Positions 26,622 through 47,078 of a stretch of 64,000 bases of DNA are shown here, one piece after another. The stretch spans positions 60,553 to 124,552 of the forward strand of contig JBEKIW010000004.1 of NCBI GenBank assembly GCA_050011565.1. Reading direction: 5' to 3'. This DNA comes from Dehalococcoidia bacterium. Lineage in GTDB: Bacteria; Chloroflexota; Dehalococcoidia; GIF9; UBA5629. The notes beneath the pieces were generated by a model, which was given only the letters and a program-made list of their open reading frames with translations, had not been told where the DNA came from and did not search any database. Made by a program: the position numbers and the translations under genes. Position 1 is the first letter of the stretch. Every line of letters starts with the position of its first letter.

Positions 26622-27845
26622 CTAAAGCAAAATTCTCCTTAGCTCGAAAAGTGCTGCCGTGACCGCTCTTTGCTTTATTTGTAGGCGGTTACCAGGGTAG
26701 TTTTTAGCAAAACTCTGCTTACTCCGCCCGTCATCAAGGCTAACAAAGATGGTACCGATTGACTGCCCCTCAATTTCAGCGGGCCCCATTACCCCGGTGA
26801 GACCGACACCGATAGATGTCCTGAGCGTTTCTCTAGCCGTTGTTGCCATAGCCTCGCATGTTTCCATGCTTACAGTTCCGTATCGAGATATACACTGCGG
26901 GTCAAGGCCGAAAGCCGCTCTCGACGCTTCGCTATAAGCAACCAGTCCTCCCGCAAAATATTTAGAGCTGCCGGGAACATTGGTGATAACATTGGCTAAA
27001 GAACCACCAGTATAAGACTCCATAGTGGCAAGGGTTAGCTTTTTGGACGACAGTAAATTTCCGACGATGCTCTCCAGTGTTTCAGGGTCTGTTCCCCATA
27101 TATAATCATTTAAAATCCCCCTGATGTCACTTTCTCGTTGGTTAATAAGCTTTTGCGCTTTGTCTTCGGTCTGTGCTTTAGCCGTGATGCGCAGGTAAAT
27201 GCCATCAATTTTAGCATACGTAGCCAATGTCGGATTTGTAGAGGGAAGAAACGGGCTTGCTCTCTCGTCTACCTCTGCTTCGGTCAGGCCGAAGGTCTTA
27301 AGGGTTTTGGAAACAATTACAGCGCCGGATGACCTCTGTTGCAACCTGGGCACTATTTCTTTCGTCCACATCAATTCCATCTCACGTGGTGGGCCAGGCA
27401 TGGTAATAATTATTCGATTATCGTTTTCCACCCACCAGCCCGGTGCGGTGCCCCTGGGGTTCGGGACAATTTCTGCTGAGGGAATTACTGTAGCCTGCTT
27501 GATGTTGCTTGGTGGCATTTCTCTCTTGAAATATCTGAATAGCTCTTCGAATTTCTGGACGAGAGCGTAGTCAACCGTAAGTTTTTCTCCGAGGAACTCA
27601 GCTATTGCTTCTCGAGTGATATCATCTTGGGTCGGTCCTAAACCGCCGGTAGTGATAATGATATCGGATCTTTGCCATCCTTGCTTTAAGGTTTCGATTA
27701 GCCTGCCCTGGTTGTCGCCAACCATTGATATAAAGTTAAGGTCAAGGCCAAGCAAAGGTAGCTGGCTCGCGAGATAAGCGGAATTTGTATCGATGATGTC
27801 CCCCAAAAGAAGCTCGGTGCCAATCGAGATTATTTCTGCCTTCAT
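26622..27845 (-). CDS. cinA: CinA-family protein (competence/damage-inducible; MoCF-binding domain plus NMN deamidase domain)
   Basis: 407 aa. N-terminal MoaB/MogA-like domain (MKAEIISIGTELLLG), C-terminal CinA domain. Confidence 0.85.
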   Translation of the reverse strand: MKAEIISIGTELLLGDIIDTNSAYLASQLPLLGLDLNFISMVGDNQGRLIETLKQGWQRSDIIITTGGLGPTQDDITREAIAEFLGEKLTVDYALVQKFEELFRYFKREMPPSNIKQATVIPSAEIVPNPRGTAPGWWVENDNRIIITMPGPPREMELMWTKEIVPRLQQRSSGAVIVSKTLKTFGLTEAEVDERASPFLPSTNPTLATYAKIDGIYLRITAKAQTEDKAQKLINQRESDIRGILNDYIWGTDPETLESIVGNLLSSKKLTLATMESYTGGSLANVITNVPGSSKYFAGGLVAYSEASRAAFGLDPQCISRYGTVSMETCEAMATTARETLRTSIGVGLTGVMGPAEIEGQSIGTIFVSLDDGRSKQSFAKNYPGNRLQIKQRAVTAALFELRRILL

Positions 27846-27865: not shown

Positions 27866-29161
27866 TCAACATCTAATCGTAGAAATTCCCAAGTATTTCT
27901 CTACCAATGCCATGGCGCAGTACTTGCCGCACATACTACAGGCTGGCCCGCCAGCGCTATATTTACTATGAATTGTTTTAACTTTTTCAGGGTCTAAAGA
28001 CAGCTCGGCCTGCAATTCCCAATCAAGGTTCTTCCTGGCCATTGACATTTTCCTATCCCATTCACTGGCTCGTTTTGTGCCTCTAACGATGTCGGCGGCG
28101 TGGGCGGCAATGCGCGAAGCTATTACACCGATTTTTACATCTTCAACATCCGGTAGTGAAAGATGTTCTGTGGGAGTGACATAACATAGAAAATCAGCTC
28201 CCGAAGCGGCAGCAATGGCACCGCCGATAGCTGCTGTAATGTGGTCATAGCCGGCACCGATGTCTGTTACCAGCGGGCCGAGAACATAAAACGGAGCGCC
28301 GTGACAGAGGCTCTTCTCTAGCTGAACATTAGCGGCAATTTGATTTAACGGTAGGTGTCCTGGTCCCTCAACCATTGTTTGCACCCCGGCTTCTCTACCA
28401 CGATCTACGAGTTCTCCGAGAGTAATCAGCTCTTCAACTTGAGCCCGGTCGGTGGCATCAGCTATGCTGCCGGGACGCATGCCATCACCCAGACTTAGAG
28501 TTACGTCAAATTTACGGGCTATATCTAACAGACGGTCAAAGTATTCATACAGCGGGTTCTCGCGGTCGTTGTATAATATCCAACCGATAAGAAATGCGCC
28601 TCCACGGGAGACAACATCGGTTAATCTTTTCTGATGTTTTAATCGGGCTATGGCGGCTCGAGTGACGCCGCAATGTACAGTCATAAAGTCGACGCCATCC
28701 TTTGCCTGCTGCTCAATAACAGAGAAGATTTGGTCTACAGACATGTTTACAATTGCACCATATCTTTCAATGGCTTCAATCCCTGTTTGGTATATCGGCA
28801 CAGTACCTACAGGTAAAGTACTGGCAGCTATGATAGATTGGCGGATCGCTGAGATGTCGCCCCCGGTACTCAGATCCATAACCGCATCAGCACCAAAGCG
28901 TGTAGCGGTAAGGAGCTTTTCCAGCTCGCTGTCCATGTTGCCATACTCTGACGAAGTGCCGATGTTGGCATTGACCTTAACCGAAAGCTCTACACCAATG
29001 CCACGTGAAACCAGGCTAGTATGATTAATGTTAGACGGGATTACTATTTTACCTTCAGCCACGTATTGCCCGACAATCTCAGGGCTTACGCTTTCCTGTT
29101 GCGCTACGTGTTTCACTTGGGGTGATAGTATACCCCGGTTTGCCAACTCCAATTGACCCAT
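27866..29161 (-). CDS. thiC: phosphomethylpyrimidine synthase
   Basis: 431 aa. Conserved ThiC core (HCGVT, C-terminal CSMCGKYCA cluster motif). Confidence 0.9.
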
Positions 29162-29174
29162 GTTATCTCCTAAA

Positions 29175-29222
29175 GAAAAAAACCAAGAGCTTTAGTAACC
29201 ACTACTAAACCCTTGGTTTGAT
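29175..29222 (-). terminator. intrinsic terminator forming the expression platform of the thiC TPP riboswitch
   Basis: Minus strand reads AACCAAGGGTTTAGTAGTGGTTACTAAAGCTCTTGGTTTTTTTC (imperfect stem with U7 tract), then RBS TAGGAGA and the thiC ATG. Confidence 0.6.
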
Positions 29223-29227
29223 TTACC

Positions 29228-29330
29228 GCTTCCCTACGCTTGTATTACCAAGGTCAGGTTCTGACGGTTCTCCGCAATAACGGAGTCTCAGCCTGGTTTA
29301 TTTTTCTGGGCACCCCTAGCGGTTAGCTAA
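29228..29330 (-). promoter_or_regulatory. TPP (THI-box) riboswitch aptamer
   Basis: Minus strand reads ...CTAGGGGTGCCCAG...GGCTGAGAC...CGTCAGAACCTGACCTTGGTAATACAAGCGTAGGGAA. Contains the invariant THI-box elements (GGGGUGCCC, CUGAGA, ACCUGAUCUGGAUAAUGCCAGCGUAGGGAA-like 3' half). Lies directly 5' of thiC. Confidence 0.8.
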
Positions 29331-33199: not shown

Positions 33200-34642
33200 A
33201 TGGTAGGCATTAAATCATACGGCGCTTACATCCCAAGGTATCGGATAAATCACAATACAATCTTTTCTGCAGTAGGGTTCCTTGGTACTTTTCCGCCACC
33301 GGGTGAGAACGCAGTTGCCAACCATGATGAGGATACGCTTAGCATGGCAGTAGCTGCCGGCGTTGATTGCTTGAATAGCATGAAAAGAGAGGAGATAGAA
33401 GGACTCTATCTGGCAACCACCAGCCAGCCCTATATGTTAAGGCAGAACTCAGCATTAGTGGCGGCTGCACTGGACCTGCAAAATAATATTAGAACTGCAG
33501 ATTTCCTTGGCTCTAACAAGGCAGGAACGGGTGCACTTCTTTCTGCCTTTGACGCCGTCAAAGGCGGTACATTAACCAATGTACTGGTCTGTGCCTCTGA
33601 TTGCCGTGTAAGTAAACCGGGTAGCTCGCAAGAGCCTCTATATGGTGATGCCGCTGCCGCTGTCCTTATGAGCAGTGATGACGTCATTGCTACACTCGAA
33701 GGTCACTTTTCTATATCTTATGATTTTCCTGACCGCTGGAAAGCAACCAGTGATAAATTTGAACATGCCTGGGAAGATAGGTTTATTCGCGACGCGGGCT
33801 ATACCAAGATTATACCCGAGGCAATTTCCGGCCTGCTGAAAAAGTACAACTTAGCTATTACTGACTTCACCAAAATTGCATTTCCTGACCTTTATCCTAG
33901 AGAACATGCCGCGATAGTCAAACGATTGGGCGCCGACCCTCGCCAGATTCAGACATCGTTGCTGGATAAAGTCGGTGATAGCGGTGCGGCTTCGCCCCTG
34001 ATGATGCTGGTGGCAGCGCTGGAAGATGCCAAGCCAGGGGATAAGATAATGGTTGCCAGCTTCGGAAATGGCAGCGATGCTATGTTTTTCCAGGTAACTG
34101 AAAAGATTAAGAAGATAGGTGATAGGCGTGGCATAAAGAAGAATTTGGAGACGAAAAAGGAGCTTGCCAGTTACGAAAAATACCTCGCCTTTCGTAATCT
34201 GACACCTGTGGAGTTGGGGATGCGGGGTGAAATAGGTTTTCGCACTCCCATGTCTACATTGTTCAGGGAACGAGAAACAGTTTTGGCCCTGTGCGGCTCT
34301 AAATGTAAGCGTTGCGGGACGCCGCAATATCCACGCCAAAGAATATGCGTTAATCCTGACTGTGGTGCTGTAGACCAAATGGAGGGCTATCGTTTTTCTG
34401 ATAAAAAAGGTGTGCTGTTTACTTATACAGGTGACAATCTGGCAGCCAGCATTGACCCGCCCGCGATTTATGGGTTCGTAGATTTTGATGGCGGAGGAAG
34501 GTTCTGGTTTGACATTACTGATTGCGACCTGGACTCGACTAAAGTGGGCATGCCTGTGGAGATGACCTTTCGCAGGAGATATGTTGATGAGAGCGGTGGT
34601 GTTTATGGCTATTCCTGGAAAGCAATGCCAGTGCGTGCCTAA
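33200..34642 (+). CDS. HMG-CoA-synthase-like (UPF0219 / archaeal-type) domain fused to a C-terminal DUF35 (Zn-ribbon plus OB-fold) domain
   Basis: The N-terminal MVGIKSYGAYIPRYRI opening and thiolase-like fold over about 350 aa resemble archaeal-type HMGCS. The C-terminal 130 aa have CGSKCKRCG...CVNPDCG (Zn ribbon) followed by an OB-fold (FVDFDGGGRFWFDI...MPVEMTFRR), typical of DUF35. Confidence 0.7.
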   Translation: MVGIKSYGAYIPRYRINHNTIFSAVGFLGTFPPPGENAVANHDEDTLSMAVAAGVDCLNSMKREEIEGLYLATTSQPYMLRQNSALVAAALDLQNNIRTADFLGSNKAGTGALLSAFDAVKGGTLTNVLVCASDCRVSKPGSSQEPLYGDAAAAVLMSSDDVIATLEGHFSISYDFPDRWKATSDKFEHAWEDRFIRDAGYTKIIPEAISGLLKKYNLAITDFTKIAFPDLYPREHAAIVKRLGADPRQIQTSLLDKVGDSGAASPLMMLVAALEDAKPGDKIMVASFGNGSDAMFFQVTEKIKKIGDRRGIKKNLETKKELASYEKYLAFRNLTPVELGMRGEIGFRTPMSTLFRERETVLALCGSKCKRCGTPQYPRQRICVNPDCGAVDQMEGYRFSDKKGVLFTYTGDNLAASIDPPAIYGFVDFDGGGRFWFDITDCDLDSTKVGMPVEMTFRRRYVDESGGVYGYSWKAMPVRA

Positions 34643-34674: not shown

Positions 34675-35877
34675 ATGGCAGAAGGTATTAGAGATAAGGT
34701 AGCTATCATCGGCATGGGCTGTACAAAATTTGGTGAGTTGTGGGATAAAGGCGCTGAAGACCTGATGGTGGACGCCTTCCAGGAATGCATTGAGGACGCC
34801 GGTATGGAAAAGAAGGATATCCAGGCAGCCTGGTTTGGCGTGCATTTTGAGGAGCAAAGTGTGGGAAAAGGGGCTACCTCTATGGCACTAGCGCTAAAGC
34901 TTCCTTTTATTCCTGTTACCAGGGTTGAAAACTTCTGCGCTACCGGCACGGAAGCTCTGAGAGGGGCTTGTTACGGCGTAGCTTCGGGGGCATACGATAT
35001 CGCTTTAGCCTTAGGTGTGGAAAAGCTAAAGGATACCGGGTATGGCGGCCTTCCCGGCGGCCAGGGCCTTTTAGGGTCCAGAAATGCGCTTATAATGCCT
35101 AAAATAACAGCACCGGGAAGTTTTGCCATGCTGGCGACGAGGTATTTCGCAGTGTACAGCCTCAGCCCCGAAGAAGGTAAGAAAATGCTGGCCAGGGTAT
35201 CAGCCAAAAGCCATCATAATGGTTCTTTGAACCCCAAGGCACATCTGCGACGCGAAATAACTGTGGAGCAGGTTATGAATGCTCCAATAATTGCCTGGCC
35301 GCTGGGGCTTTTCGATTGCTGCGGTGTCAGCGATGGTTCGGCAGCAGCTATCGTAACCACAGCTGAGCTGGCTAAAAAGTTCAGGCCTGACCCCGTATAT
35401 ATCAAATCTCTCCAGATTGCCTTAAGTTCGGGCGAGGAATTGATGTATACCAAATGGGATGGCGCGCATGTCGAGACCGGATTTCGCGCCGGAGTTCAAG
35501 CCTATAAAGAGGCCGGAGTTAAAAATCCGCGTAAAGAAATTAGCATGGCTGAAGTACATGACTGCTTCTCCATAACCGAAGCGGTAACTATGGAGGATTT
35601 GCAGTTCAGTCCCCGAGGAAAGGTTAAAGAAGATATCGAGGCTGGACGTTTCAATCTGGACGGCGAGCAGCCTGTTCAGCCCGACGGCGGATTGAAATGT
35701 TTCGGGCATCCTATCGGTGCCTCCGGCCTGCGTATGATGTACGAGATGTATAAGCAGCTGCAGGGCAAAGCCCAGTTGCCGGAACGACAGTTAAAGAACC
35801 CCAAGCTGGGATTAACTCATAATATGGGTGGCTTTCCGGCCATGAATATTGTTAGCGTGGCCATTGTTGGGTTATAA
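34675..35877 (+). CDS. thiolase-like protein (SCP-x / nonspecific lipid-transfer-protein type)
   Basis: 400 aa. N-terminal catalytic Cys region (VENFCATGTEALRGA), C-terminal GHPIGASGLRMM and CCGVSDG motifs. Confidence 0.8.
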   Translation: MAEGIRDKVAIIGMGCTKFGELWDKGAEDLMVDAFQECIEDAGMEKKDIQAAWFGVHFEEQSVGKGATSMALALKLPFIPVTRVENFCATGTEALRGACYGVASGAYDIALALGVEKLKDTGYGGLPGGQGLLGSRNALIMPKITAPGSFAMLATRYFAVYSLSPEEGKKMLARVSAKSHHNGSLNPKAHLRREITVEQVMNAPIIAWPLGLFDCCGVSDGSAAAIVTTAELAKKFRPDPVYIKSLQIALSSGEELMYTKWDGAHVETGFRAGVQAYKEAGVKNPRKEISMAEVHDCFSITEAVTMEDLQFSPRGKVKEDIEAGRFNLDGEQPVQPDGGLKCFGHPIGASGLRMMYEMYKQLQGKAQLPERQLKNPKLGLTHNMGGFPAMNIVSVAIVGL

Positions 35878-36202
35878 GACGGAAGAATGAACTTAAAAGG
35901 CAGGCTGTGGCTGATGGTGCGCCGGCGATATTTGACCTATATCAGGAAAGGGTATATGCTGGGCAGTAATTTACGTCTGATGCTATTGACATGCTGTGGT
36001 ATAATATTTGCCGTACCTCCGATTGTATTTTGTATTGAATATGCTATAAACTGGTCACATGAATAAAAAACAAATCTTATTAGTGGAAGGGGGTGGTCGT
36101 ATCGAGTGAATAAGACCAAGCATGCCGGGGCAAACATCGGTCGATGGTGTTTGTCAGCAAATTTGTCCTTAAGAGGAAATGTTTTAGGAGGTTAATGGCT
36201 AA

Positions 36203-38092
36203 GTGAAAAAAGTTCTGTTCTTATTGTTTACCTGTCTCTTACTTGTAGCGATTGTACTTCCTGCCTGTAAGCCTGGTCCAGCAGTTACCGGGCCAGTAAT
36301 AAAGATAGGCGTCATCGGGCCGATGCAATATATACAGGGCGAGCATCACTGGTGGGGTGCTGAGATGGCTCGTGATGAAATAAATGCGGCAGGTGGTGTA
36401 AAGGTCCTCCCTGACCAGCCCCCGTATATGGTTGAGCTAATCAAAGCAGACTCCAATGAAATAAACAGCATTACCGATGCCTCCGCGGCCATGGAAAAGT
36501 TGATAACGGTAGACAAGGCACAATTTGTGGTCGGGGGCTTCAGGACGGAAGCTGTCTTCCCCATGCAGGAAGTCGCCATGGACAACAAGATAATTTTCAT
36601 GAATTGTGGCGCGGCTACACTTGCACTACAAACGCCGGTGTTGACGAATTATGACCGCTATAAGTACTACTTCAGAGTCACTCCATTCCAATCCGGCTAT
36701 CTAGTCCAGAATGTGTTAATGTCAATGTCAATGGCCGAAAAAATAATAAAAGAGGATACCGGGATACAAAGGCCGTTGAATGCTGCTGTCTTTACTGAAG
36801 GGGCGCAGTGGGCTGATGCCATAACGTCAATCATGCAATCGCTGATTCCTACGAAGCTGGGTATGAAAGTCGTTGGCACATGGAGACCATCGCCTACAGC
36901 CACAGATTGTAATGCCGAGATGGCAGCTATACAAGCTGCTAACACCGACATTATCGGTGAAGTTATATCCGGCCCGCTTGGTGTACCATATGCCAGGTCA
37001 TGGGGCGAGCTGAAAGTACCGGCAGCTTCAGTGGGCATTAACGTTGAGTCCCAGGCTTTCACCTTCTGGGAAGCGACTCAGCATTTCGGCAACTTGGAGA
37101 CTGGCCTGGTTACATTAGCTGAGAACACAGCGGTTACGCCGAAGACTGTCCCGTTCTACAATGCCTTTGTAGCGAAGACCGGACAGCCACCCATATATAC
37201 TGGTGCCGGCACTTACGATGCCGTCTATACCTTGGCAGAAGCCATAACCCGGGCAGGGACTCTGGATTCAGATGCCGTGGTTGCTGAGCTGGAAAAGACG
37301 GATAGAGTTGGGGCTGGGGCCCGCCTTGTATTTACGGGTATTGATGATCCGTCGAAGGATCCTCACGACGTGACCTACGGTCCCGGATTTTCAACGGGTA
37401 TCGCCGGGCAGTGGCAGGATGGAAAATTGGTAGGTGTCTGGCCGAACCCTAACTATGTCGGGTATGTTCCGAATGATGCCTGGAAAACGGTGTCATATGA
37501 GGGAATGGTTAAGTGGATACCACGCCCCGAGCTAATCGACAAGTTGAAGGCCGAGGCGGCTACGCAACCGGCGGCACCCCCAGCGGGAGAACAACCTGCA
37601 GCACCTCCGGCGGGAGAACAGCCGGCAGCACCTCCAGCAGCAGGATTAGCGACTTACACCAACACCGAGTATGGTTTCTCCGTTCAATATCCTGGTGACT
37701 GGGTAGCGCGACCAGAGCTCATCATTAAGCCTGAATTCCAAAAGGCTGCATACGGTGTATCTGGCTTTGTTCCAGGGTTTGTTGCTTATGCCTTTGCTAA
37801 TCCTCCGGAGGAGTCTAAAGATTGGATCGTTACGTCTTTCAAGGCGACAGGCAATACAATGCCTAAAGTGACCTCAGACATCAAACAGGAGACTCTGGCG
37901 GATGGTACTCAAGCTTACACGTATAAAGCAAGCTATGTATCTGCCACTGGATATGGGATAGAGTCGTACGTCCTCGATGCAGATAAGGGAACCACCCGGT
38001 TTCGTGTGAATGTATTTACTATACCTGATATGGCTCCTATGGATGAGGCGCTGGCTTCGCAAGTTGCTCACTCTTTGACCTTTACAAAGTAA
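36203..38092 (+). CDS. Liv-type ABC transporter substrate-binding lipoprotein fused to a Pro-rich linker and a PsbP-like C-terminal domain
   Basis: 629 aa. GTG start, lipobox LPACK. Residues 30-440 are a periplasmic-binding-protein type I (LivK family) fold. Residues 455-480 are PAGEQPAAP x3. The C-terminal 150 aa begin YTNTEYGFSVQYPGDWV (PsbP-like hallmark). Confidence 0.7.
   Translation: MKKVLFLLFTCLLLVAIVLPACKPGPAVTGPVIKIGVIGPMQYIQGEHHWWGAEMARDEINAAGGVKVLPDQPPYMVELIKADSNEINSITDASAAMEKLITVDKAQFVVGGFRTEAVFPMQEVAMDNKIIFMNCGAATLALQTPVLTNYDRYKYYFRVTPFQSGYLVQNVLMSMSMAEKIIKEDTGIQRPLNAAVFTEGAQWADAITSIMQSLIPTKLGMKVVGTWRPSPTATDCNAEMAAIQAANTDIIGEVISGPLGVPYARSWGELKVPAASVGINVESQAFTFWEATQHFGNLETGLVTLAENTAVTPKTVPFYNAFVAKTGQPPIYTGAGTYDAVYTLAEAITRAGTLDSDAVVAELEKTDRVGAGARLVFTGIDDPSKDPHDVTYGPGFSTGIAGQWQDGKLVGVWPNPNYVGYVPNDAWKTVSYEGMVKWIPRPELIDKLKAEAATQPAAPPAGEQPAAPPAGEQPAAPPAAGLATYTNTEYGFSVQYPGDWVARPELIIKPEFQKAAYGVSGFVPGFVAYAFANPPEESKDWIVTSFKATGNTMPKVTSDIKQETLADGTQAYTYKASYVSATGYGIESYVLDADKGTTRFRVNVFTIPDMAPMDEALASQVAHSLTFTK
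37571..37645 (+). repeat. 27-nt tandem repeat (about 2.7 copies) encoding the PAGEQPAAP linker
   Basis: GCGGCACCCCCAGCGGGAGAACAACCT / GCAGCACCTCCGGCGGGAGAACAGCCG / GCAGCACCTCCAGCAGCAGGA. Confidence 0.7.
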
Positions 38093-38234: not shown

Positions 38235-38879
38235 ATGACGAACAAGACATACAAATTCGTAACAGTGTTAATGGTCATGCTGCTTGTTCTGGGTCTGGCC
38301 TTAGTGGCCTGCAAGGCACCGGCTGAAACAGTAACGCCACCGGCTCCACCCGAACAACAAGCGACGCCACCGGCTGAACAACAAGCGACGCCACCGGCTG
38401 AACAACCAGCTACACCGCCGGCTGCACACCAACTGACATATACAGCTAAAACATATACTAATAGCCAGTATGGCTTCTCAATCCAGTACCCAAAGGATTG
38501 GGTAGAGCGCCCCGAAATCGCCAATGGGAGCCTTATCATTGCCTTCGGTGTACCCGGGTTCGTTCCTGGCGTAAGTATGAGTGTACGTGATGCAAATGAA
38601 CCTATGACTGCCGATTGGGTCGTGGCAGCGAATACGGCTGAGGGGAACACGAAGGTTAAAGTTACGTCACCTCCGACAGAGACAACTCTGTTTGACGGCA
38701 CGCCGGCAGTTCAGTACGTATCGAAGTTTACGTCTGGACAATACGACATTGTTTCTTTTGCCACCAGCACAGACAAGAACGGCAAGCGGATTCGTGCCAC
38801 TGTATGGACTATAGACGCGTTCTCTCCTTACGATGAGGCACTGTTCTCTGAGATAGCACACACCTTGTCAGTTAAATAA
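38235..38879 (+). CDS. PsbP-like domain lipoprotein with a Pro-rich linker
   Basis: The start is more likely the ATG at 38235 (RBS AAAGGAGA) than the ORF-track 38196. Lipobox LALVACK, PPAEQQAT x3 linker, then YTNSQYGFSIQYPKDWVERPE... This is homologous to the C-terminal domain of the upstream SBP. Confidence 0.6.
   Translation: MTNKTYKFVTVLMVMLLVLGLALVACKAPAETVTPPAPPEQQATPPAEQQATPPAEQPATPPAAHQLTYTAKTYTNSQYGFSIQYPKDWVERPEIANGSLIIAFGVPGFVPGVSMSVRDANEPMTADWVVAANTAEGNTKVKVTSPPTETTLFDGTPAVQYVSKFTSGQYDIVSFATSTDKNGKRIRATVWTIDAFSPYDEALFSEIAHTLSVK
38333..38420 (+). repeat. 24-nt tandem repeat (about 3 copies) encoding the PPAEQQAT linker
   Basis: CCACCGGCTGAACAACAAGCGACG repeated, with minor variation. 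Confidence 0.7.
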
Positions 38880-39013: not shown

Positions 39014-39886
39014 ATGGTTGAAGGAATTATAGTTCAGACTCTGGTGAAAGGAAGTGTATATGCGCTCCTGGCTCTCGGTTTCGCCCTAATCTTTGGGGTA
39101 GCCCGGGTGCTACAGCTGTCGCATACCGCGTTTTACATGCTGGCAGCCTACGGGATATTTGCTTTCGCCAGCTTACTCGGTTGGAGTCCGATTGTGTCCA
39201 TTATCCTGTCTATAGTCATTACTACCGGGCTGGGGCTTCTGGTGTACAAGCTACTTATCGACCGTGTACGTGAGCACCACGTAACCGTGATGCTGATAAC
39301 CCTGGCTGTAGCCATGATGTTTCAGCAGATCATGATTATTGCCTTCTCAGGTCAATATCGTTCAGCGCCGGCTTTTGTCACAGGATACTGGGAAATACTC
39401 GGCGTAAAAGTCGTCTTCCAGAATTTGCTGGTATTTGCTGGTGCGGCGGTTGTTCTGCTCATCGTATGGGCGCTTTTGTCAAAGACAAGACTGGGTATTG
39501 CCATCAGGGCTACCGCTCAGGACACCGAAATTGCCAATCTAATGGGGATAAATGTCTCCACTATACTGTTCACGGTTATGGGTATTGCCGCGGCACTGGC
39601 CGCGGTTGCCGGCGTGCTGGTGGCTCCAACGTTGGTCCTTGAACCTGGTATGCTGTGGCCTCCATTCGTCATGGTCATGGCGATAATTACTCTGGGTGGT
39701 CTGGGAAGCGTCAAGGGAAGTGTCATCGGAGCTTTTATTCTGGCCCTGGTTGAAACCCTGGTTGTTTTCTTGCTGCCTACCGGTGCCTTTCTTAAGGGGG
39801 CCGCCGCCTTGCTGGTCATGGTGATAGTACTCATTGTAAGGCCTGAGGGTCTATTTGGCGTAGTTTTCGAAGAGGAGAGATTGTAA
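39014..39886 (+). CDS. branched-chain-amino-acid-type ABC transporter permease (LivH family)
   Basis: 290 aa with about 8 TM helices, LivH-like. Confidence 0.85.
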   Translation: MVEGIIVQTLVKGSVYALLALGFALIFGVARVLQLSHTAFYMLAAYGIFAFASLLGWSPIVSIILSIVITTGLGLLVYKLLIDRVREHHVTVMLITLAVAMMFQQIMIIAFSGQYRSAPAFVTGYWEILGVKVVFQNLLVFAGAAVVLLIVWALLSKTRLGIAIRATAQDTEIANLMGINVSTILFTVMGIAAALAAVAGVLVAPTLVLEPGMLWPPFVMVMAIITLGGLGSVKGSVIGAFILALVETLVVFLLPTGAFLKGAAALLVMVIVLIVRPEGLFGVVFEEERL

Positions 39887-39887
39887 A

Positions 39888-40937
39888 TTGCTAAGTAGAT
39901 TATTTAAAGATTTTCAGGGCGATGTAGTGGCCATACCGGGCAGGTTAATAGCTTTAATTTTCTTTGTGCTCTTGTTTCTAATTCCTGCATTTACACAGCA
40001 GCCTTACATACTGCGTATGCTGATTTTTACGAATATGTTCGTTATCTTCGCCGTAAGCTGGGATTTTATATCCGGCTATACCGGCCAGTTGAACTTCGGT
40101 CATGCCCTCTTCTTCGGGGTGGCCGCCTACACGACAGCTTTGCTGAACAGGGGAGGCGACCTGGGCCCGCACTGGCCAATATGGGTAACCATACCGCTGG
40201 GTGCCATTGCAGCGGTAATAGCCGGCGTTGTCATGTGTTTGCCGGCATTGAGGTTGAGGGGACCCTATCTGGCTCTGGTAACCCTGGCGTTTCCACTTAT
40301 TCTTCTCGGGGTTATTTTCTCTTTTACCAAGTTTACCGGTGGTGAGTTAGGAATTTCCGGTATTGACCGCATTTCCGATTCCAGAACAGTAGAGTACTAC
40401 ATCTCAGTGCTCGTCATGATCGTCTCGGTATTCATAATGTGGAAGCTTACGGATGCCCAGAGCGGCCTGGTCAGGACAGGGATTATTCTTCATGCTATAC
40501 GCGAGGATGAAATTGCAGCTCGCGCCAGCGGAATAAATACAATACGATATAAGCTGTTCGCCTTTGCTGTAGGCGGCTTCTTCGCCGGAATAGCAGGCGG
40601 CTTTTATGCGCACTTCCTGAGAATTGCCGGTCCTTCCTCCCTGGACCTTACATTGTCGTTCCAAGCCATAATATGGACTGTTTTCGGAGGTATTGTTAGC
40701 ATTTACGGGGCGGTGGTGGGGGTTTATATACTTTATCCTCTGATGGAGTCCCTGCGTTCTATCTCGGAGTACCGGATGTTAATCTTTGCCGTCATAGTGA
40801 TACTGATTCTTCTTTTCATGCCTGAAGGCATTGCCGTCTGGATACGGGACAAGATTGAGAGACAATGTCCACGTTGCAAGCTGACTAATGTGTCATGGCG
40901 TCATACCTGTAGAGCTTGCAGCGCTGACCTGTACTAG
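39888..40937 (+). CDS. ABC transporter permease (LivM family) with a C-terminal CxxC..CxxC tail
   Basis: 349 aa polytopic. Last 30 aa: CPRCKLTNVSWRHTCRACSADLY. Confidence 0.85.
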   Translation: MLSRLFKDFQGDVVAIPGRLIALIFFVLLFLIPAFTQQPYILRMLIFTNMFVIFAVSWDFISGYTGQLNFGHALFFGVAAYTTALLNRGGDLGPHWPIWVTIPLGAIAAVIAGVVMCLPALRLRGPYLALVTLAFPLILLGVIFSFTKFTGGELGISGIDRISDSRTVEYYISVLVMIVSVFIMWKLTDAQSGLVRTGIILHAIREDEIAARASGINTIRYKLFAFAVGGFFAGIAGGFYAHFLRIAGPSSLDLTLSFQAIIWTVFGGIVSIYGAVVGVYILYPLMESLRSISEYRMLIFAVIVILILLFMPEGIAVWIRDKIERQCPRCKLTNVSWRHTCRACSADLY

Positions 40938-40989: not shown

Positions 40990-41739
40990 CTAGAGGCCGA
41001 GATACGTCTTTCTGATAGTTTCGTCTTTGAGCAACTCTGCAGCTGTTCCTTGGGCGATGATATGGCCTCTTGACATAACGTAATTTCTTACTGAGAGGCT
41101 AAAAGCGAAACTGACATCTTGTTCAGCCAGTAAAATAGTAACACCCAGTTCGCGGTAAATCTCTTCTACACGTTTAAACAGGTCCTGCTTTAATTTTGGT
41201 GCCAGGCCGCTTGAGGGTTCGTCAACCATCATGAACTTAGGGCGACGCATCAACGACCTGCCAATAGCCAGCATTTGACGTTCACCGCCGGATAGTGTTC
41301 CCGATATTTGATTCTGTCGTTCTTTCAGTCTGGGAAAGAGCTCATAGACCTTTTCCATGCTACTATTAATTGCCTTCTGGTCCTTGACAAGATAAGCGCC
41401 GGCCAGCAGGTTATCTTTAACCGTCATTTCAACAAATGGCCTGCCTCGCTCCGGGCAAAGGAGCAGACCTCTTTTGGCTATATCAGATGCCGACAGATTT
41501 TCAATCCTCTCACCCTCGAACTCTATAATCCCATCGAAGGTTATATCAGCCTGTCTGGTTCCTTTTGAGACCTCTTTCTCCCACTTTATTAATCCTGCCA
41601 TAGCCCTGAGTAAGGTGCTCTTTCCGGCACCGTTGGGGCCGACAAGGCTCACCAATTCGCCTTTTTCTACATTAAGGCTGGCGTCATCCAGCACCGTGGC
41701 CGTGTCGTAACGGACGGTTACGTTTTTAACTTCCAGCAA
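40990..41739 (-). CDS. ABC transporter ATP-binding protein (LivF family)
   Basis: Walker A GPNGAGKST, signature LSGGERQ, Walker B MMVDEPS. Confidence 0.85.
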   Translation of the reverse strand: MLEVKNVTVRYDTATVLDDASLNVEKGELVSLVGPNGAGKSTLLRAMAGLIKWEKEVSKGTRQADITFDGIIEFEGERIENLSASDIAKRGLLLCPERGRPFVEMTVKDNLLAGAYLVKDQKAINSSMEKVYELFPRLKERQNQISGTLSGGERQMLAIGRSLMRRPKFMMVDEPSSGLAPKLKQDLFKRVEEIYRELGVTILLAEQDVSFAFSLSVRNYVMSRGHIIAQGTAAELLKDETIRKTYLGL

Positions 41740-42499
41740 TGAGCACCTCCTTACCTGTGTAAGCTTCGATTACTACGGGGTTTTTGGATATTTCTTCAGG
41801 TGTGCCTGTAGCGATGATTTCGCCAAAGCAAAGTACAATTACTCTGTCTACTATCTTCATCAGCTCACTAAGCTTGTGCTCTATGATAAGCATAGCCGGC
41901 CCTTCACTATGAAGCCGGCCGAATCTCCCGCCTTTGTGTAACCGTTTCATTGATTTGGCCACAAGCTCGGTTTCGGCTGGGTTCAATCCGCCGAAAGGCT
42001 CATCGAGGATAAGCAACTCCGGTTCGGTGGCAATAGCTCTGGCTACCTCCAGCCGCTTTAAATCCCCGTGTGCTAGAATAGAAGCCGGTTCTAGAGCCAT
42101 GTCGGCGATACCTACGAATTCCAAAGCGTCTCGTGCCTTTACCTCGACTCTTTTGACCCATTCGCCTCGCTTGGATATCCTCGGGCAGAGACAACCTACC
42201 ATAACGTTAGCTATGATAGGCAAATGGCGGAAAGGTTTTACTACCTGGAAAGTTCCCACCATACCTCTCTGGACAATATCCCACGATCGTTTTCTGGTTA
42301 TATCTTTGCCGTCAAGTATGACTTTTCCTGAATCCGGCCTCAATATGCCGAGTAAGCAGCGTATGAGTGTGGTCTTGCCCGAACCGTTTGGCCCAATCAG
42401 GCCGACGATTTCATCTCTTTCTATCTTGAAGCTCACATTATTAACAGCAGATAGACCGCCGAAGGTCTTGGTTAAATTTTCGACTTCTAGAAACGCCAT
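41726..42499 (-). CDS. ABC transporter ATP-binding protein (LivG family)
   Basis: Walker A GPNGSGKTT, Walker B LILDEPFGGLNP. Its start lies 7 nt after the upstream CoA ligase stop. Confidence 0.85.
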   Translation of the reverse strand: MAFLEVENLTKTFGGLSAVNNVSFKIERDEIVGLIGPNGSGKTTLIRCLLGILRPDSGKVILDGKDITRKRSWDIVQRGMVGTFQVVKPFRHLPIIANVMVGCLCPRISKRGEWVKRVEVKARDALEFVGIADMALEPASILAHGDLKRLEVARAIATEPELLILDEPFGGLNPAETELVAKSMKRLHKGGRFGRLHSEGPAMLIIEHKLSELMKIVDRVIVLCFGEIIATGTPEEISKNPVVIEAYTGKEVLIAGS

Positions 42500-42506
42500 T
42501 TTATAG

Positions 42507-44216
42507 CTACTCCTCTCTCAGCTCACGACGAGATACTTTGCCGACATCTGTTTTAGGCACCTCGCCTCTGAACTCGACGATTGTGGGACACTTATAATCA
42601 GCTAGCCTCTCCTGGCAATATTTCATGATATCCAGCTCTGATAGCTTCCCTCTGGCTTCTGTCTCGAGGACAACTACTGCTTTTACTTTCTCTCCAACCT
42701 CGGGGTCGGGAACTCCGATTACACCCGTCTCCTTGATTTGAGGATGAGCCGCCAGGACTTCTTCTACCTCCCTGGCATATACAATCTTGCCCTTGTGCTT
42801 AATCATATCACGTTTTCTGTCGTAGAAAAAGAAATAGCCGTCTTGATCCATTCTGCACAAGTCGCCGGTACGAAGCCAGATTTCACCGTCTATATTGACA
42901 AATGTTTCACTGGTTGCCTCCGGGTTTTTCCAGTATCCTTTGGCTACTTGTGGACCCTTTATTATAAGCTCGCCTATCTCGCCAACAGAAAGAAAATTGT
43001 TGCTATCGGGGTCGACTATGGCAGCCACGGTATTAGGTAGAGGTACACCGAAAGAGCCGACTTTTGTTTTGCCGAATGGGTTGACAATTCCCACAGAAGT
43101 TGTTTCAGTCATCCCCCAGCCCTCGTGGATTTTGGAGCCCGTCCTTTTCTCCCAGCCTTTAGCCGTGTCCTCAAGTAGGATGTCGGCGCCGGAGATAAGA
43201 ACTTTGACGCGCTTCCAATTGACTCTGTCGGTGCGGTGGTAATCTCGAAGATATTCATATAAGGCCGCCACGCTGTAGAAAATAGTTGCATGGTAAGTTT
43301 CCATGGCGTTGAGTAAGTCGTCAAGGTCGATGGTGGTGAATATCACCAGGGTGTATCCCTGCGCCAGACCACCCGCCACCAACACCGCCTGGCCATAGAT
43401 ATGATAGAAGGGCAAATAAGCTAAAATGGTTTCCTTGCCTTCTTGCGTAACATCGCCCCAGAAATTTGCGGCTATATGTTCGGATACGTTAATGTTTTCG
43501 TGGGTTATCATAACACCTTTGGGTAGTCCCGTTGTCCCTCCGGTGTAGGGAAGAGTTACCAGGTCCTCCTTATTGTTGAATTCGATTTTCGGTGGATTGG
43601 GTGGATATTTCTTAATCAAGTCTTTGAATAGATAGAATCCCTCTCTATGGTAGAGCTCGGCAGGCGGTGCTGCCATCTTCTGGTAGACGGCACGGAGTAC
43701 GCTGCTGCCCATGAACCTTTTCAGCCACGGTATATAATCGGCGATATTTACCAGGATGACCTTATCCAGCTTGACTTCTGCCCGTTCGACGTTATCATAG
43801 AGATTATCCTGGCAGATAATTATGGTGGCGCCGCTGTCTTCAATTTGATGTTTGATTTCGGGGCTGACATAGAAAGGACTGATGGCAGTTAAAATGGCTC
43901 CAGCCTTTAAAGCTCCGAAAAAGGCTATGATGAACTGGGGTGAGTTCAGAAGTAGTAAAGCGACTCTATCCCCCTTTTTAACTCCTAAGTCCTGGAGAGC
44001 TGTGGCGAATCTATCGACATGGTCTCTTAGCTCGCGGTAGCTCATCTTCCTGCCATAGAATATTACGGCAGTTCTATCCTTCCATTTGTCTGTGGCTTCG
44101 TTAAAGATGTCAACTGCGGACTTATCCGCCATTTTTATGTCCGCCGGCACCTCCGGGAGATAGAACTTCAGCCACGGTCTGGATTCGTATATTGCCTTGT
44201 TGGTATCGGCCGCCAT
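42507..44216 (-). CDS. AMP-dependent acyl-CoA synthetase/ligase
   Basis: AMP-binding motifs (YTGGTTGLPKGV, GWGMTE, TGD). The start is taken at the internal ATG (44214-44216), which has a perfect RBS AAAGGAGGAGGTGA. The ORF-track 5' extension MLYFAPNKGGGDI appears to be leader sequence. Confidence 0.85.
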   Translation of the reverse strand: MAADTNKAIYESRPWLKFYLPEVPADIKMADKSAVDIFNEATDKWKDRTAVIFYGRKMSYRELRDHVDRFATALQDLGVKKGDRVALLLLNSPQFIIAFFGALKAGAILTAISPFYVSPEIKHQIEDSGATIIICQDNLYDNVERAEVKLDKVILVNIADYIPWLKRFMGSSVLRAVYQKMAAPPAELYHREGFYLFKDLIKKYPPNPPKIEFNNKEDLVTLPYTGGTTGLPKGVMITHENINVSEHIAANFWGDVTQEGKETILAYLPFYHIYGQAVLVAGGLAQGYTLVIFTTIDLDDLLNAMETYHATIFYSVAALYEYLRDYHRTDRVNWKRVKVLISGADILLEDTAKGWEKRTGSKIHEGWGMTETTSVGIVNPFGKTKVGSFGVPLPNTVAAIVDPDSNNFLSVGEIGELIIKGPQVAKGYWKNPEATSETFVNIDGEIWLRTGDLCRMDQDGYFFFYDRKRDMIKHKGKIVYAREVEEVLAAHPQIKETGVIGVPDPEVGEKVKAVVVLETEARGKLSELDIMKYCQERLADYKCPTIVEFRGEVPKTDVGKVSRRELREE

Positions 44217-44246
44217 TATGTCACCTCCTCCTTTATTTGGAGCAAA

Positions 44247-44256
44247 GTATAGCACA
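44247..44256 (-). promoter_or_regulatory. extended -10 promoter element TGcTATACT for the downstream CoA ligase
   Basis: Minus strand reads TGTGCTATACT, about 30 nt upstream of the ligase ATG. A duplicate sits at 46366-46376. Confidence 0.35.
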
Positions 44257-44500: not shown

Positions 44501-46333
44501 TTACAGCTCGTCCTCTCTCAATTCCCGCCTAGATACTTTGCCGACATCTGTCTTTGGCACTTCACCCCTGAACTCTACGATTCTGGGACATTTATAGTGC
44601 GCCATATGTTCCGCGCAATATTTCATGATTTCTTCTTCGGAGACTTTGCCTCTGGCGTCCGTCTCGAGGACGACGATGGCTTTGACTTTCTCTCCGACGT
44701 TTTTGTCGGGAACCCCGATTACACCCGCCTCTTTGACCAGTGGATGCGCTTTCAGTACCTCCTCCACCTCCCTGGCGAATACCGCCAGGCCCTTATATTT
44801 AATCATGTCACGTTTTCTATCGTAGAAAAAGAAATAGCCTTCTTTGTCCATTCTGGCCAGGTCGCCGGTTCGAAGCCATGTTTCGCCGCCGATTTTGACG
44901 AACATTTTCTTCGTCTCTTCCGGATTATGCCAGTATCCTGGGGATATTTGTGGACCCCTGACGGCAAGCTCGCCTATCTCGCCAACAGGCAGAAATTTGG
45001 TGCTTTCAGGACTGAGTATTCCAGCTACTGTGTTACACATGGGGACGCCGAAAGAACCGACCTTCGGCCTGCCGTATGGACTACCCATTCCAATAGAGCT
45101 AGTCTCAGTCATACCCCAGCCCTCATGTATTTTAGTATTTGTCCGTTTCTCCCAACCTATCGCCGTATCTTCAAGAAGGGCATCGGCGCCGGAGACGAGA
45201 ACTTTGAGGCGCTTCCAGTTAATTCTGTCCGTACGTTGATAATCTCTGAGGTACTCATACAAAGACGGGACGCTGAAGAAAATAGTTGCCTTGTAGCTTT
45301 CGATGGCATTTAAGATGTCGTCGAGGTCGGGGGTGGTGAATATCACCAGGGTGTAGCCCTGAGCCAGACCACCCAACATAATCACTGCCTGACCGTAGAT
45401 ATGGTAAAAGGGCAAATATGCCAGTATGGTCTCTTTGCCTTCCTGGACAATATTTCCCCAGAACTCTGAGCCTATGTACCTGGCTGCAGTGATATTATAG
45501 TGGGTTATCATAGCTCCTTTGGGAAGTCCTGTTGTGCCGCCGGTATAGGGCAGGGTTACCAGGTCCTCATGAATATTGAACTTGATTTTTGGCGGCTTGG
45601 GCGGATATTTCTTAATCAAGTCCTGTAATTGATAAATTCCTTCTCTTTCATATATCTCAGAAGGTGGTGCTGCCATCTTCTGGTATACAGCCCTGAGTAT
45701 GCTGCTGCCCAGGAACTTTTTTAGCCCGGGTAAATATTCTGCAATACTGGTCAGGATAACCTTATCCAGTTTGACTCCTGACCGTTCCACATTTTCATAA
45801 AGTATATCCTGGCAGACGATTATCCGGGCGCCGCTGTCTTCAATTTGATGTTTGATTTCGGGACTAACATAAACAGGACTGATGGCAGTCAGTATAGCTC
45901 CAGCCTTCAGGGCGCCGAAATAGGCTATGATGAATTGAGGTGAGTTCAGGAGCAGTAAAGCAACCCTATCACCTTTTTTGACTCCCAGGTCCTGCAAGGC
46001 TGTGGCGAATCTATCGACGTGGTCTCTTAATTCGCGGTAGCTTATTTTTCTACCGTAGAATATTACGGCGGTCCTATCCTTCCATTTAGTTGTAGCTTCA
46101 TCGAAGGTTTCGACTGCGGATTTTTCCGGTATTTTGACATCCGCGGGCACCTCTTTGAGGTAAAACTTCAGCCATGGTCTTTTTTCATATATTGCCTTGT
46201 TTGGGTCAGCCTTTGGAGCAGCTTTCTTTACTTGAGCTTTCTTTAGTTGAGCTTTCTTTAGTTGAGCTTTCTTTAGTTGAGCTTTCTTTGGGTGAGCCTT
46301 CTTTGGGTGGGACTTCTTTGGGTGAGCCTTCAT
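44501..46333 (-). CDS. AMP-dependent acyl-CoA synthetase/ligase with a lysine-rich N-terminal repeat tail
   Basis: Paralog of 42507..44216, about 75% identical by eye. The start is taken at ATG 46331-46333, preceded by TTAGGAGGAGACGACACA. The N-terminus is MKAHPKKSHPKKAHPKKAQLKKAQLKKAQLKKAQVKKAAPK. Confidence 0.8.
   Translation of the reverse strand: MKAHPKKSHPKKAHPKKAQLKKAQLKKAQLKKAQVKKAAPKADPNKAIYEKRPWLKFYLKEVPADVKIPEKSAVETFDEATTKWKDRTAVIFYGRKISYRELRDHVDRFATALQDLGVKKGDRVALLLLNSPQFIIAYFGALKAGAILTAISPVYVSPEIKHQIEDSGARIIVCQDILYENVERSGVKLDKVILTSIAEYLPGLKKFLGSSILRAVYQKMAAPPSEIYEREGIYQLQDLIKKYPPKPPKIKFNIHEDLVTLPYTGGTTGLPKGAMITHYNITAARYIGSEFWGNIVQEGKETILAYLPFYHIYGQAVIMLGGLAQGYTLVIFTTPDLDDILNAIESYKATIFFSVPSLYEYLRDYQRTDRINWKRLKVLVSGADALLEDTAIGWEKRTNTKIHEGWGMTETSSIGMGSPYGRPKVGSFGVPMCNTVAGILSPESTKFLPVGEIGELAVRGPQISPGYWHNPEETKKMFVKIGGETWLRTGDLARMDKEGYFFFYDRKRDMIKYKGLAVFAREVEEVLKAHPLVKEAGVIGVPDKNVGEKVKAIVVLETDARGKVSEEEIMKYCAEHMAHYKCPRIVEFRGEVPKTDVGKVSRRELREDEL
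46221..46333. repeat. 15-nt tandem DNA repeat (about 7 copies) encoding the K-K-A-(Q/H)-(L/P) tail
   Basis: GCTTTCTTTAGTTGA x3, then GCTTTCTTTGGGTGA / GCCTTCTTTGGGTGG / GACTTCTTTGGGTGA. Confidence 0.7.
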
Positions 46334-46365
46334 TGTGTCGTCTCCTCCTAATTTGCTAAGCGTCA

Positions 46366-46376
46366 AGTATAACACA
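46366..46376 (-). promoter_or_regulatory. extended -10 promoter element TGtTATACT for CoA ligase paralog 2
   Basis: Minus strand reads TGTGTTATACTTGAC... followed by the RBS and ATG, matching the architecture of the leader at 44217-44260. Confidence 0.35.
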
Positions 46377-46580
46377 TTATACTCGTATTTTGCTACTGTG
46401 TATGAAGTGCTGGTTATGCTGTTTTTAAGTCCGGAATATCCGGTTTATTGCCACGCAGGCTCTGGAATTGATAAAATACGCTACTATAGATGATTGCGGC
46501 TTAAATTAGCAGGTAATACCTGGCGCCGTTCACAATATAATCAGATGGGTTCGTCAAACATTAACCACAAGGAGGCTCGA

Positions 46581-47078
46581 GTGAGAAACAATAAAAAACA
46601 TTGGTTTCTGCTTTTGGGACTTATCGTCCTGCTGCTCAGTTCTGTCGTCGGTTGTGGTCAGCCGGGATTCACGGCATATACCAATGATTTGGGAGGGTAT
46701 AGTATTAGTTATCCGCTCAGTTGGAAGGGCGAGGTTTCTAAAGACGGGACAACATTCCTAATAGCATCTCCGACCCGCGTGGCTTCGGTCATGATATATG
46801 TAGCAGATTCCATGTCAGCTCAAACTGCTGCCCAACGTTGGCTTATGTCATTGGGAACACATTGGTCTGAAATAGCTCAAATAGAAAATAAACCAATGGA
46901 AGGCTTCTGGAACTGGTATGTTTCATATGACTATAATGCGGATACTGGCCCGTTTCACGGAGAGGCTTACTTCAAGAGCACTGCAGACCACCTCTATAGA
47001 TTGGATACGGCAGCAGATTCGGCTGGATACAAGAATTATCCCTTCTCTATGATAATCTCATCATTTAAGCTGAAGTGA
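46581..47078 (+). CDS. PsbP-like domain lipoprotein (third paralog)
   Basis: Probable GTG start at 46581 after GGAGG. Lipobox VVGCGQ. YTNDLGGYSISYPLSWKGEV... is homologous to the domains at 38235..38879 and the SBP C-terminus. Confidence 0.55.
   Translation: MRNNKKHWFLLLGLIVLLLSSVVGCGQPGFTAYTNDLGGYSISYPLSWKGEVSKDGTTFLIASPTRVASVMIYVADSMSAQTAAQRWLMSLGTHWSEIAQIENKPMEGFWNWYVSYDYNADTGPFHGEAYFKSTADHLYRLDTAADSAGYKNYPFSMIISSFKLK

Follow-up and report, generated by a model that had tools for sequence, protein, structure and literature searches.

A Liv-type substrate-binding lipoprotein with a predicted PsbP-like C-terminal domain in Dehalococcoidia

The substrate-binding proteins (SBPs) of ABC importers are usually single-module receptors. 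In a stretch of 64,000 nucleotides from a Dehalococcoidia bacterium (contig JBEKIW010000004.1, positions 60,553 to 124,552; the window), the gene at 36203..38092 on the plus strand encodes an SBP of the Liv type that is followed by a proline-rich linker and a further domain. The initial annotation, made from the sequence, had read this tail as a PsbP/DUF1795 domain and knew of no such architecture. The locus raises the question of what the tail is, how widely the fusion is kept, and what a PsbP-like domain could do for an importer. We find that SBP::PsbP is a new architecture built from known folds, restricted to one lineage and accompanied by a conserved operon partner.

Domain architecture of the fused protein

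The gene and its parts are as follows.

36203..38092 (+): whole gene, stop codon included; uninterrupted open reading frame for a probable lipoprotein of 629 residues (SBP, linker, PsbP-like domain)
36203..36268 (+): signal peptide ending in a lipobox-like LPAC (Cys22), read from the translation; N-terminus MKKVLFLLFTCLLLVAIVLPAC
36293..37558 (+): type I periplasmic-binding (Liv/Peripla_BP_6) domain, extended C-terminally, residues ~31-452 (Pfam PF13458, AlphaFold2 (AF2), Foldseek)
37559..37645 (+): Ala/Pro/Glu-rich flexible linker, residues 453-481, 29 residues (Tandem Repeats Finder (TRF), AF2)
37646..38089 (+): predicted C-terminal Mog1/PsbP-fold domain, residues 482-629 (148 residues), opening with YTNTEYGFSVQYPGDWV

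The start codon is GTG, 10 nt past an AGGAGG ribosome-binding site at 36187-36192. An identical protein, MGD0353447.1, is held in the NCBI, ENA and JGI collections as 'MAG: ABC transporter substrate-binding protein [Dehalococcoidia bacterium]' (MAG, metagenome-assembled genome). Across 65 homologues, Cys22 is invariant and P20 and A21 are nearly so; the signal peptide is hydrophobic, its residues 2-22 are modelled as a helix by AF2, and the Pro at -2 is atypical for a lipobox. Lipidation at Cys22 is predicted.

The assignment of the N-terminal part to the Liv-type SBPs was borne out. Residues 33-372 match Peripla_BP_6 (PF13458) with E 1.9e-27 and 97.3 bits against a cut-off of 31.7 in the Pfam scan. 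In the full-length AF2 model (predicted local distance difference test (pLDDT) 91.2, predicted template-modelling score (pTM) 0.79), the two-lobed binding domain and the tail are both confident, the former mostly above pLDDT 90. Foldseek matched the binding domain to type I (cluster B) proteins, namely LivJ, UrtA and the SBPs for pyroglutamate and for the aromatic acid 4-hydroxybenzoate, with target-normalised template-modelling scores (TMt) of 0.74-0.87 and E ~1e-19. With the Liv/HAAT proteins of this type (LivJ/LivK, UrtA and SBPs of Rhodopseudomonas palustris) it shares the two-lobed fold, a putative lipoprotein-type signal peptide and neighbouring genes for LivH/LivM permeases and LivG/LivF ATPases. 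Unlike the solved SBPs, it has in addition a C-terminal domain with a predicted PsbP fold.

The linker between the two domains had been described as a Pro-rich sequence with a threefold repeat. The repeat is real, but the count was too high: TRF finds a 27-nt unit in 2.7 copies (85% match, 37565..37638), corresponding to the peptide TQPAAP-PAGEQPAAP-PAGEQPAAP-PAAG. Residues 462-479 fall below pLDDT 50, i.e. are disordered in the model. In 54 fused homologues the linker measures 17-42 residues (median 31) and its sequence is not conserved, with differing repeat units; composition alone is kept (Ala 28%, Pro 26%, Glu 13%, Thr 10%), and not one stop codon or frameshift interrupts it. Because it is disordered in the model, varies in length and sequence while keeping its composition, and resembles the stalks of standalone copies of the domain (see below), the linker is predicted to behave as a spacer or leash.

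Identity of the C-terminal domain

A domain of about 150 residues opening as initially described was found at residues ~482-629. Plain sequence libraries were insufficient to place it. Pfam PsbP_2 (PF18933) reaches 16.2-20.9 bits on the tail against a gathering threshold of 27, and does so over profile positions 43-65 only, a 21-residue motif. The NCBIfam scan gave nothing useful (NF040946, PSII_PsbP, 11.7 bits against a cut-off of 60), and a search of all PDB sequences with a profile of the domain returned no significant match.

The placement comes instead from structure prediction and from a profile-profile bridge. Firstly, the AF2 model of residues 476-629, computed with 27 homologues (pLDDT 94.1, pTM 0.90), shows an antiparallel beta-sheet flanked by helices in the topology of PsbP, and the Foldseek comparison, with TM-scores of ~0.7, ranked its neighbours in a consistent order; PsbP, CyanoP, PnsL, Mog1, Eag and Tsi3 are among the structural neighbours, and the comparison with PsbP and CyanoP proposed at the outset thus gave a PsbP fold. 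Secondly, a profile made from 27 trimmed copies of the domain (A3) matches the protein P0204 at E 1.5e-35. P0204 contains six tandem copies and itself passes the Pfam models PsbP_2 (2.1e-63), PsbP (3.1e-34) and DcrB (2.6e-15); aligned with its six repeats by hhalign, A3 gives a probability of 96.6% and E 6.5e-10 over 140 columns. P0204 is one of several tandem-copy relatives that pass the PsbP_2 cut-off through their summed score, along with P0150, P0151, P0153 and P0155. Because predicted structure and profile bridge agree, we assign the tail, as modelled, to the Mog1/PsbP superfamily as a divergent member closest to PsbP/PsbP_2 and not specifically to DcrB/DUF1795.

Of the initial label, then, the PsbP part stands, and DUF1795 holds at the level of the superfamily only. 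DcrB/DUF1795 (PF08786) was rejected as clearly more distant than PsbP; this family includes the Eag chaperones and SciW, and the Eag chaperones are cytoplasmic. Nor was the tail assigned to PsbP proper, since its carriers are all MAGs of Dehalococcoidia or other Chloroflexota and NF040946 falls far below its cut-off. It is 10-17% identical to PsbP, CyanoP and PnsL (Pfam PsbP, PsbP_2) and lies below the Pfam gathering score. The host here, unlike theirs, is expected to be non-photosynthetic and to offer no photosystem II or NDH partner, and the domain appears as a mobile module on the SBP and on many other proteins. No other family claimed the tail in profile searches. A precomputed Pfam match to PF27998.1 is present on one of 29 close standalone homologues, P0125, the bearer of the longest Pro/Thr/Ala repeat. 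Because the other 28 lack it, we suspect that PF27998.1 matches the low-complexity stalk and not the domain.

Recurrence of the fusion and spread of the domain

When the full protein's best 120 homologues are considered, the tail is carried continuously by each of the roughly 66 that reach at least 575 residues, at 45-95% overall identity, and the fusion occurs in at least 60 protein clusters at 90% identity. An assembly or frameshift artefact was rejected, the same architecture being present in many samples, assemblers and independent assemblies. The fused tail is conserved at 29-71% identity over these clusters, in which the SBP parts have diverged to 45%, and it retains the invariant core and motif residues, among them P22, W25, P49, L90, D92, G93, T131 and P137 when counted within the domain. 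Because the tail is intact, its invariant residues are kept and the 54 linkers are uninterrupted, the comparison indicates purifying selection on the tail.

The fusion is thus recurrent, and the sources name it as an SBP or a 'branched-chain amino acid' SBP only; for the roughly 66 fusions, precomputed Pfam annotation lists binding-protein families only, and the free copies are called 'hypothetical protein'. The expectation that the architecture had not been described was upheld: no PDB chain spans both the SBP and the tail (best query-normalised score, TMq, 0.52 in Foldseek), and the searchable literature contains no description of an SBP::PsbP fusion and nothing pertinent on PsbP in dehalococcoids.

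Architectures were surveyed by an exhaustive profile search over 1.84 billion representatives at 50% identity, and by Pfam scans of 30 multi-domain matches. A word-indexed search with the tail alone returned 29 standalone proteins and missed every fusion, including the query's own protein; it was not used for architectures. The domain profile found 1309 representatives, of 57-1328 residues, at E<=1e-3; 237 of them reach <=1e-10 and 70 reach <=1e-30. By this measure the match of the C-terminal domain is far beyond chance. SBP fusions account for two of the 150 best representatives (P0018, P0185). In a scan of 185,579 species-representative genomes, at least 10 loci were recovered, all in MAGs of Dehalococcoidia, Dehalococcoidales or other Chloroflexota; this number is a lower bound, as the scan was pattern-limited (closer alignment A1).

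Elsewhere, the domain lies C-terminal to Ser/Thr kinases anchored by a transmembrane (TM) segment, often after an FN3/Pur_ac_phosph_N spacer and sometimes in tandem. Since it lies outside the cell on these receptor kinases, it may serve them as a putative extracellular sensor. Other fusion partners are peptidase C11, CotH kinase, beta-lactamase-type hydrolases, DUF1254, PD40, TPR, CARDB, FN3, InlB B-repeats and a DnaJ-domain protein. Across these kinase, TIR, peptidase and CotH proteins, the module appears from sequence to be a general-purpose extracytoplasmic sensor or anchor in Dehalococcoidia.

Two groups of these proteins may be recorded individually. At L013:3976-6441 (+) (CAYNVO010000006.1, a Dehalococcoidales MAG), a zinc-ribbon, a kinase, a TM helix, a Pro/Thr linker and an FN3-like domain precede one or two external PsbP-like domains, and receptor Ser/Thr kinases with the domain outside are also seen in P0175, P0178 and P0280. 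P0160, P0174 and P0197 combine an N-terminal TIR domain with a C-terminal PsbP-like domain, with an FN3-like domain between the two in P0174 and P0197 and an assumed TM segment. A cytoplasmic TIR domain joined to an extracytoplasmic PsbP-like sensor would, if true, be an unusual pairing.

The transporter operon and related loci

Around the fused gene, the window holds the following features.

38235..38879 (+): free-standing paralogue, a 214-residue lipoprotein with an LVAC lipobox, a Pro-rich stalk and a PsbP-like domain (open reading frame, BLASTP, TRF)
39014..39886 (+): LivH-type permease (Pfam BPD_transp_2, E 4.4e-37)
39888..40937 (+): LivM-type permease (Pfam BPD_transp_2, E 1.7e-44)
40990..41739 (-): LivF-type ATPase (Pfam ABC_tran); position conserved in related loci
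41726..42499 (-): LivG-type ATPase (Pfam ABC_tran and BCA_ABC_TP_C)
42507..44255 (-): AMP-forming acyl-CoA ligase (Pfam AMP-binding, E 2.6e-92), read in the same direction as livG-livF and lying directly upstream
46494..47078 (+): possible third, divergent PsbP-like lipoprotein, a VVGC lipobox followed by FTAYTNDLGGYSISYPLSW; weak match

The paralogue at 38235..38879, which the initial annotation did not include, lies directly 3' of the SBP gene. It corresponds to MGD0353448.1, a 'hypothetical protein' at NCBI, and its lipobox is canonical. Its domain is 45% identical to the fused copy (BLASTP, E 7e-36), and its stalk is built from an 8-residue unit in 3.4 copies (TRF, 38352..38432). The possible third copy at 46494..47078 matches the hidden Markov model of the domain at E 2.2e-5, over profile positions 8-64 only (the N-terminal part), and has no Pfam or NCBIfam match.

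The strand of livG-livF and the ligase converges with that of livH-livM. Synteny of the ligase with the transporter is seen in about 10 distinct loci (L001-3 are near-identical). The best NCBIfam matches of the ligase are fatty-acid-CoA ligase models, all below cut-off. A second AMP-forming acyl-CoA ligase at 44501..46375 (-) is extended at its N-terminus by about 60 residues of Lys-rich repeats (KAHPKK..., KKAQLKKAQLKKAQLKKAQVKK); its paralogue at 42507..44255 has no such extension.

Nineteen fetched loci were annotated with the window proteins and the domain model. At nine distinct loci of Dehalococcoidia or other Chloroflexota, the fused SBP gene precedes one or two standalone copies; these are the window, the L001-3 group, L006, L007, L008, L010, L011, L012 and L014. 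In most of them LivH and LivM come next, and the opposite strand then carries LivF, LivG and the AMP-ligase. Two types can be told apart among the standalone copies, whose stalks after the lipobox are comparable to the fused linker. Type A shares 85-95% identity with the fused domain beside it and 60-68% between loci (L001, L006, L011); because identity within a locus exceeds that between loci, this pattern indicates concerted evolution by gene conversion, or else recent duplications that have recurred. Copies of type B, an older paralogue, show 44-58% identity, and the window keeps a B copy only.

Among unfused relatives, the P0068 clade (L004/L005) has a 259-residue lipoprotein with a PsbP-like domain directly upstream of the SBP, which is, as gene order suggests, an association of the Rosetta-stone type. 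At L016:6289-6678 (+) (JGI 3300028162, Ga0268278_1000004), a remnant with the last 50 positions of the domain only (E 4e-15) comes after an orphan unfused SBP, P0071 (474 residues), near a ribosomal-protein operon; here the fusion appears to have decayed. No domain copy was found nearby in the loci of P0075 (L017), P0089 (L018) and P0098 (L019), and L018 has the full transporter and ligase without any PsbP-like copy. Copy number runs from 0 to 3 per locus. By these comparisons, the PsbP-like module is a frequent fused or adjacent partner of the transporter clade, yet a dispensable one, because close SBP relatives, at 57-63% identity, lack the tail or keep a remnant only.

At L007 (CAVSBU010000037.1, labelled 'uncultured Chloroflexia'), the syntenic reading frames of the SBP, the PsbP copies, LivH, LivF and the ligase are broken into many short pieces, which look like the product of an error-prone assembly rather than real pseudogenes.

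Upstream of the SBP gene, the 480-residue product of 33200..34642 (+) is HMG-CoA-synthase-like (NF003274, 215 bits, cut-off 244) and fused to DUF35/OB_ChsH2_C. It is followed at 34675..35877 (+) by an acetyl-CoA acetyltransferase (NF004810, 627 bits against 403). The pair resembles the archaeal thiolase/HMGCS/DUF35 complex with two of its parts fused, and most related loci keep it in synteny with the transporter.

Substrate of the transporter

The 'branched-chain amino acid' name given by the sources is, as far as sequence can tell, a family label and not a substrate call, because the LivJ equivalog model NF011933 scores 35 bits against a cut-off of 477 and because the nearest solved SBPs, at 15-20% identity, bind ligands as different as L-pyroglutamate, urea, Leu and 4-hydroxybenzoate. 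LivJ/K orthology was rejected on that score.

For R. palustris, SBPs of COG0683 that carry the label 'branched-chain amino acid' binders were found to bind mostly aromatic, fatty and dicarboxylic acids, and those adjoining the pimA ligase match the substrate range of that ligase (PMC3223731). In the pim cluster, as here, an acyl-CoA ligase adjoins the SBP (PMC3223731). Because of this precedent, and because the ligase is conserved beside livGF in about 10 distinct loci, we infer by analogy that the transporter probably imports a carboxylic acid (fatty, dicarboxylic or aromatic) that would be activated to its CoA ester by the co-operonic ligase.

Proposed role of the C-terminal domain

The initial suggestion that the tail could tether the SBP in the cell envelope or contact another envelope component is plausible. 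The reading we favour, at a probability of roughly 0.4 and by analogy, is that the fused and free PsbP-like domains form an accessory capture or docking layer of this probable carboxylic-acid importer. The product of 36203..38092 would be the membrane-anchored SBP lipoprotein of a Liv/HAAT-type ABC importer. Pro-rich stalks would keep fused and free heads alike at similar distances, a few nanometres, from the membrane; the heads would putatively bind either a substrate of poor solubility or a surface partner that carries this substrate, raising the substrate's availability to the SBP and the LivHM permease. The PsbP-like domain would accordingly be an auxiliary binding module, outside the core transport cycle.

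Known systems offer partial parallels. In Gram-positives, NEAT-domain modules tethered to the surface and encoded with an ABC importer hand haem, a poorly soluble ligand, to the SBP IsdE; the NEAT fold is unrelated to the PsbP-like tail, ligand transfer here is hypothetical, and the relay is an analogy only. Closest in function, again by analogy, is the mycobacterial lipoprotein LpqN, which has a PsbP fold, binds a lipid mimic and partners the transporters MmpL3 and MmpL11 (PMC7458404). LpqN differs in being unfused and in serving RND (resistance-nodulation-division) exporters, not ABC importers, and a profile search of PDB sequences found no sequence-level relationship of the tail to LpqN or to the further mycobacterial PsbP-fold envelope proteins MTC28 and Apa.

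Several points weigh against such a layer. The domain is promiscuous, so that the operon copies could reflect some general task at the surface and not one specific to transport. Among the characterised proteins of the Mog1/PsbP fold, most have other proteins as their ligands and not small molecules. Whether the tail docks on the SBP is not decided by the full-length pTM of 0.79. On the side of the substrate, the very different ligands of the nearest solved SBPs point to no one substrate class, the ligases lie below every NCBIfam cut-off, and the upstream HMG-CoA-synthase::DUF35 and thiolase genes look like an archaeal-type mevalonate route, not beta-oxidation.

The strongest alternative, which we consider possible while setting the odds against it, takes the domain for a module that anchors or positions proteins across the lineage, these bacteria being wall-less monoderms. 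It would bind an S-layer protein, a glycan or another envelope protein and fix or space the SBP and the lipoproteins, with no direct part in handling the substrate. In this lineage the tail is used externally on many unrelated proteins of the membrane and surface, mostly at the C-terminus, a distribution typical of anchoring and targeting domains, and characterised members of the PsbP, CyanoP, PnsL, Mog1, Eag and Tsi3 families work chiefly by contacting other proteins; binding to an envelope component could also let the domain double as the sensor of a kinase. An anchor seems superfluous, however, on an SBP that already has a probable N-terminal lipid anchor, on kinases with a TM helix of their own and on TIR proteins, for which such a helix is assumed. 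Nor does a general anchor explain why one or two free copies are kept in the transporter operon at about 10 distinct loci, and because of these copies envelope docking fits less well than a capture layer.

Far less probable is an intramolecular regulator, in which the tail would dock on the lobes or hinge of the SBP, modulating its opening and closing or its contact with the permease, and standalone paralogues would compete or act in trans. By our estimate, which is not a computed test, the full-length pTM is somewhat above what independent domains would give, and the near-identity of fused and type A domains within a locus is compatible with a shared binding surface. The long, disordered and highly variable linker is ill-suited to a fixed docking geometry, though, and the domain is used in many SBP-free proteins while close SBP relatives function without a tail.

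We give an equally small likelihood to a neutral fusion, i.e. a by-product of tandem duplication and read-through between the SBP gene and an adjacent gene for a PsbP-like lipoprotein, kept by drift in one clade. Loss or decay of the domain in close relatives, as in the L016 remnant, would suit it, as would the duplication or gene conversion of adjacent copies and their changing number. Drift accords poorly with a tail kept intact over so many clusters and behind linkers free of stops and frameshifts.

A PsbP function tied to a photosystem has a negligible likelihood, and so has an artefact of annotation or assembly. The former has in its favour the fold similarity to PsbP/CyanoP only; against it stand carriers that are all Dehalococcoidia or other Chloroflexota MAGs, Dehalococcoidia not being known as oxygenic phototrophs, and the absence of a photosystem II gene among the ~20 annotated window genes. 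The latter is at odds with the many independent assemblies that contain the fusion.

Returning to the capture layer, it can be extended into a broader proposal that we regard as doubtful: stalked PsbP-fold heads would be an unrecognised accessory of ABC importers in wall-less monoderm Dehalococcoidia, a surface capture-and-relay system for hydrophobic organic acids, and would also act on Ser/Thr kinases and TIR transmembrane proteins as a general sensor of extracytoplasmic ligands in this lineage. If true, nutrient uptake, signalling and possibly responses based on TIR would be tied together by one ligand-recognition fold.

Significance

The organisms are uncultured, so the value of these results lies mainly in annotation and in the hypotheses they offer; no long-standing question is resolved. 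Any one fusion is less surprising given how promiscuous the domain is, and the role of the tail is one that we infer. Within these bounds, the conserved fusion and its free paralogues suggest an extra surface layer for substrate acquisition in some uncultured subsurface Chloroflexota, the substrates probably being scarce, poorly soluble organic acids. The source annotations examined here record neither the additional domain nor the likelihood that the substrate is not an amino acid. The profile also defines a large family of ~1300 representatives (50% identity, E<=1e-3), those scanned lying below the PsbP_2 threshold or passing it through summed tandem copies.

Other features of the window

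Two further features were recorded at a distance from the transporter genes. A TPP (thiamine pyrophosphate) riboswitch (RF00059, 69 bits) at 29214..29327 (-) lies upstream of the minus-strand genes 27866..29161 and 26622..27845. The 429-residue product of 53291..54580 (-) has a lipoprotein-type signal (GSSAC) and looks serpin-like by eye, for example in 'DRPFIFLIRD' near its C-terminus.

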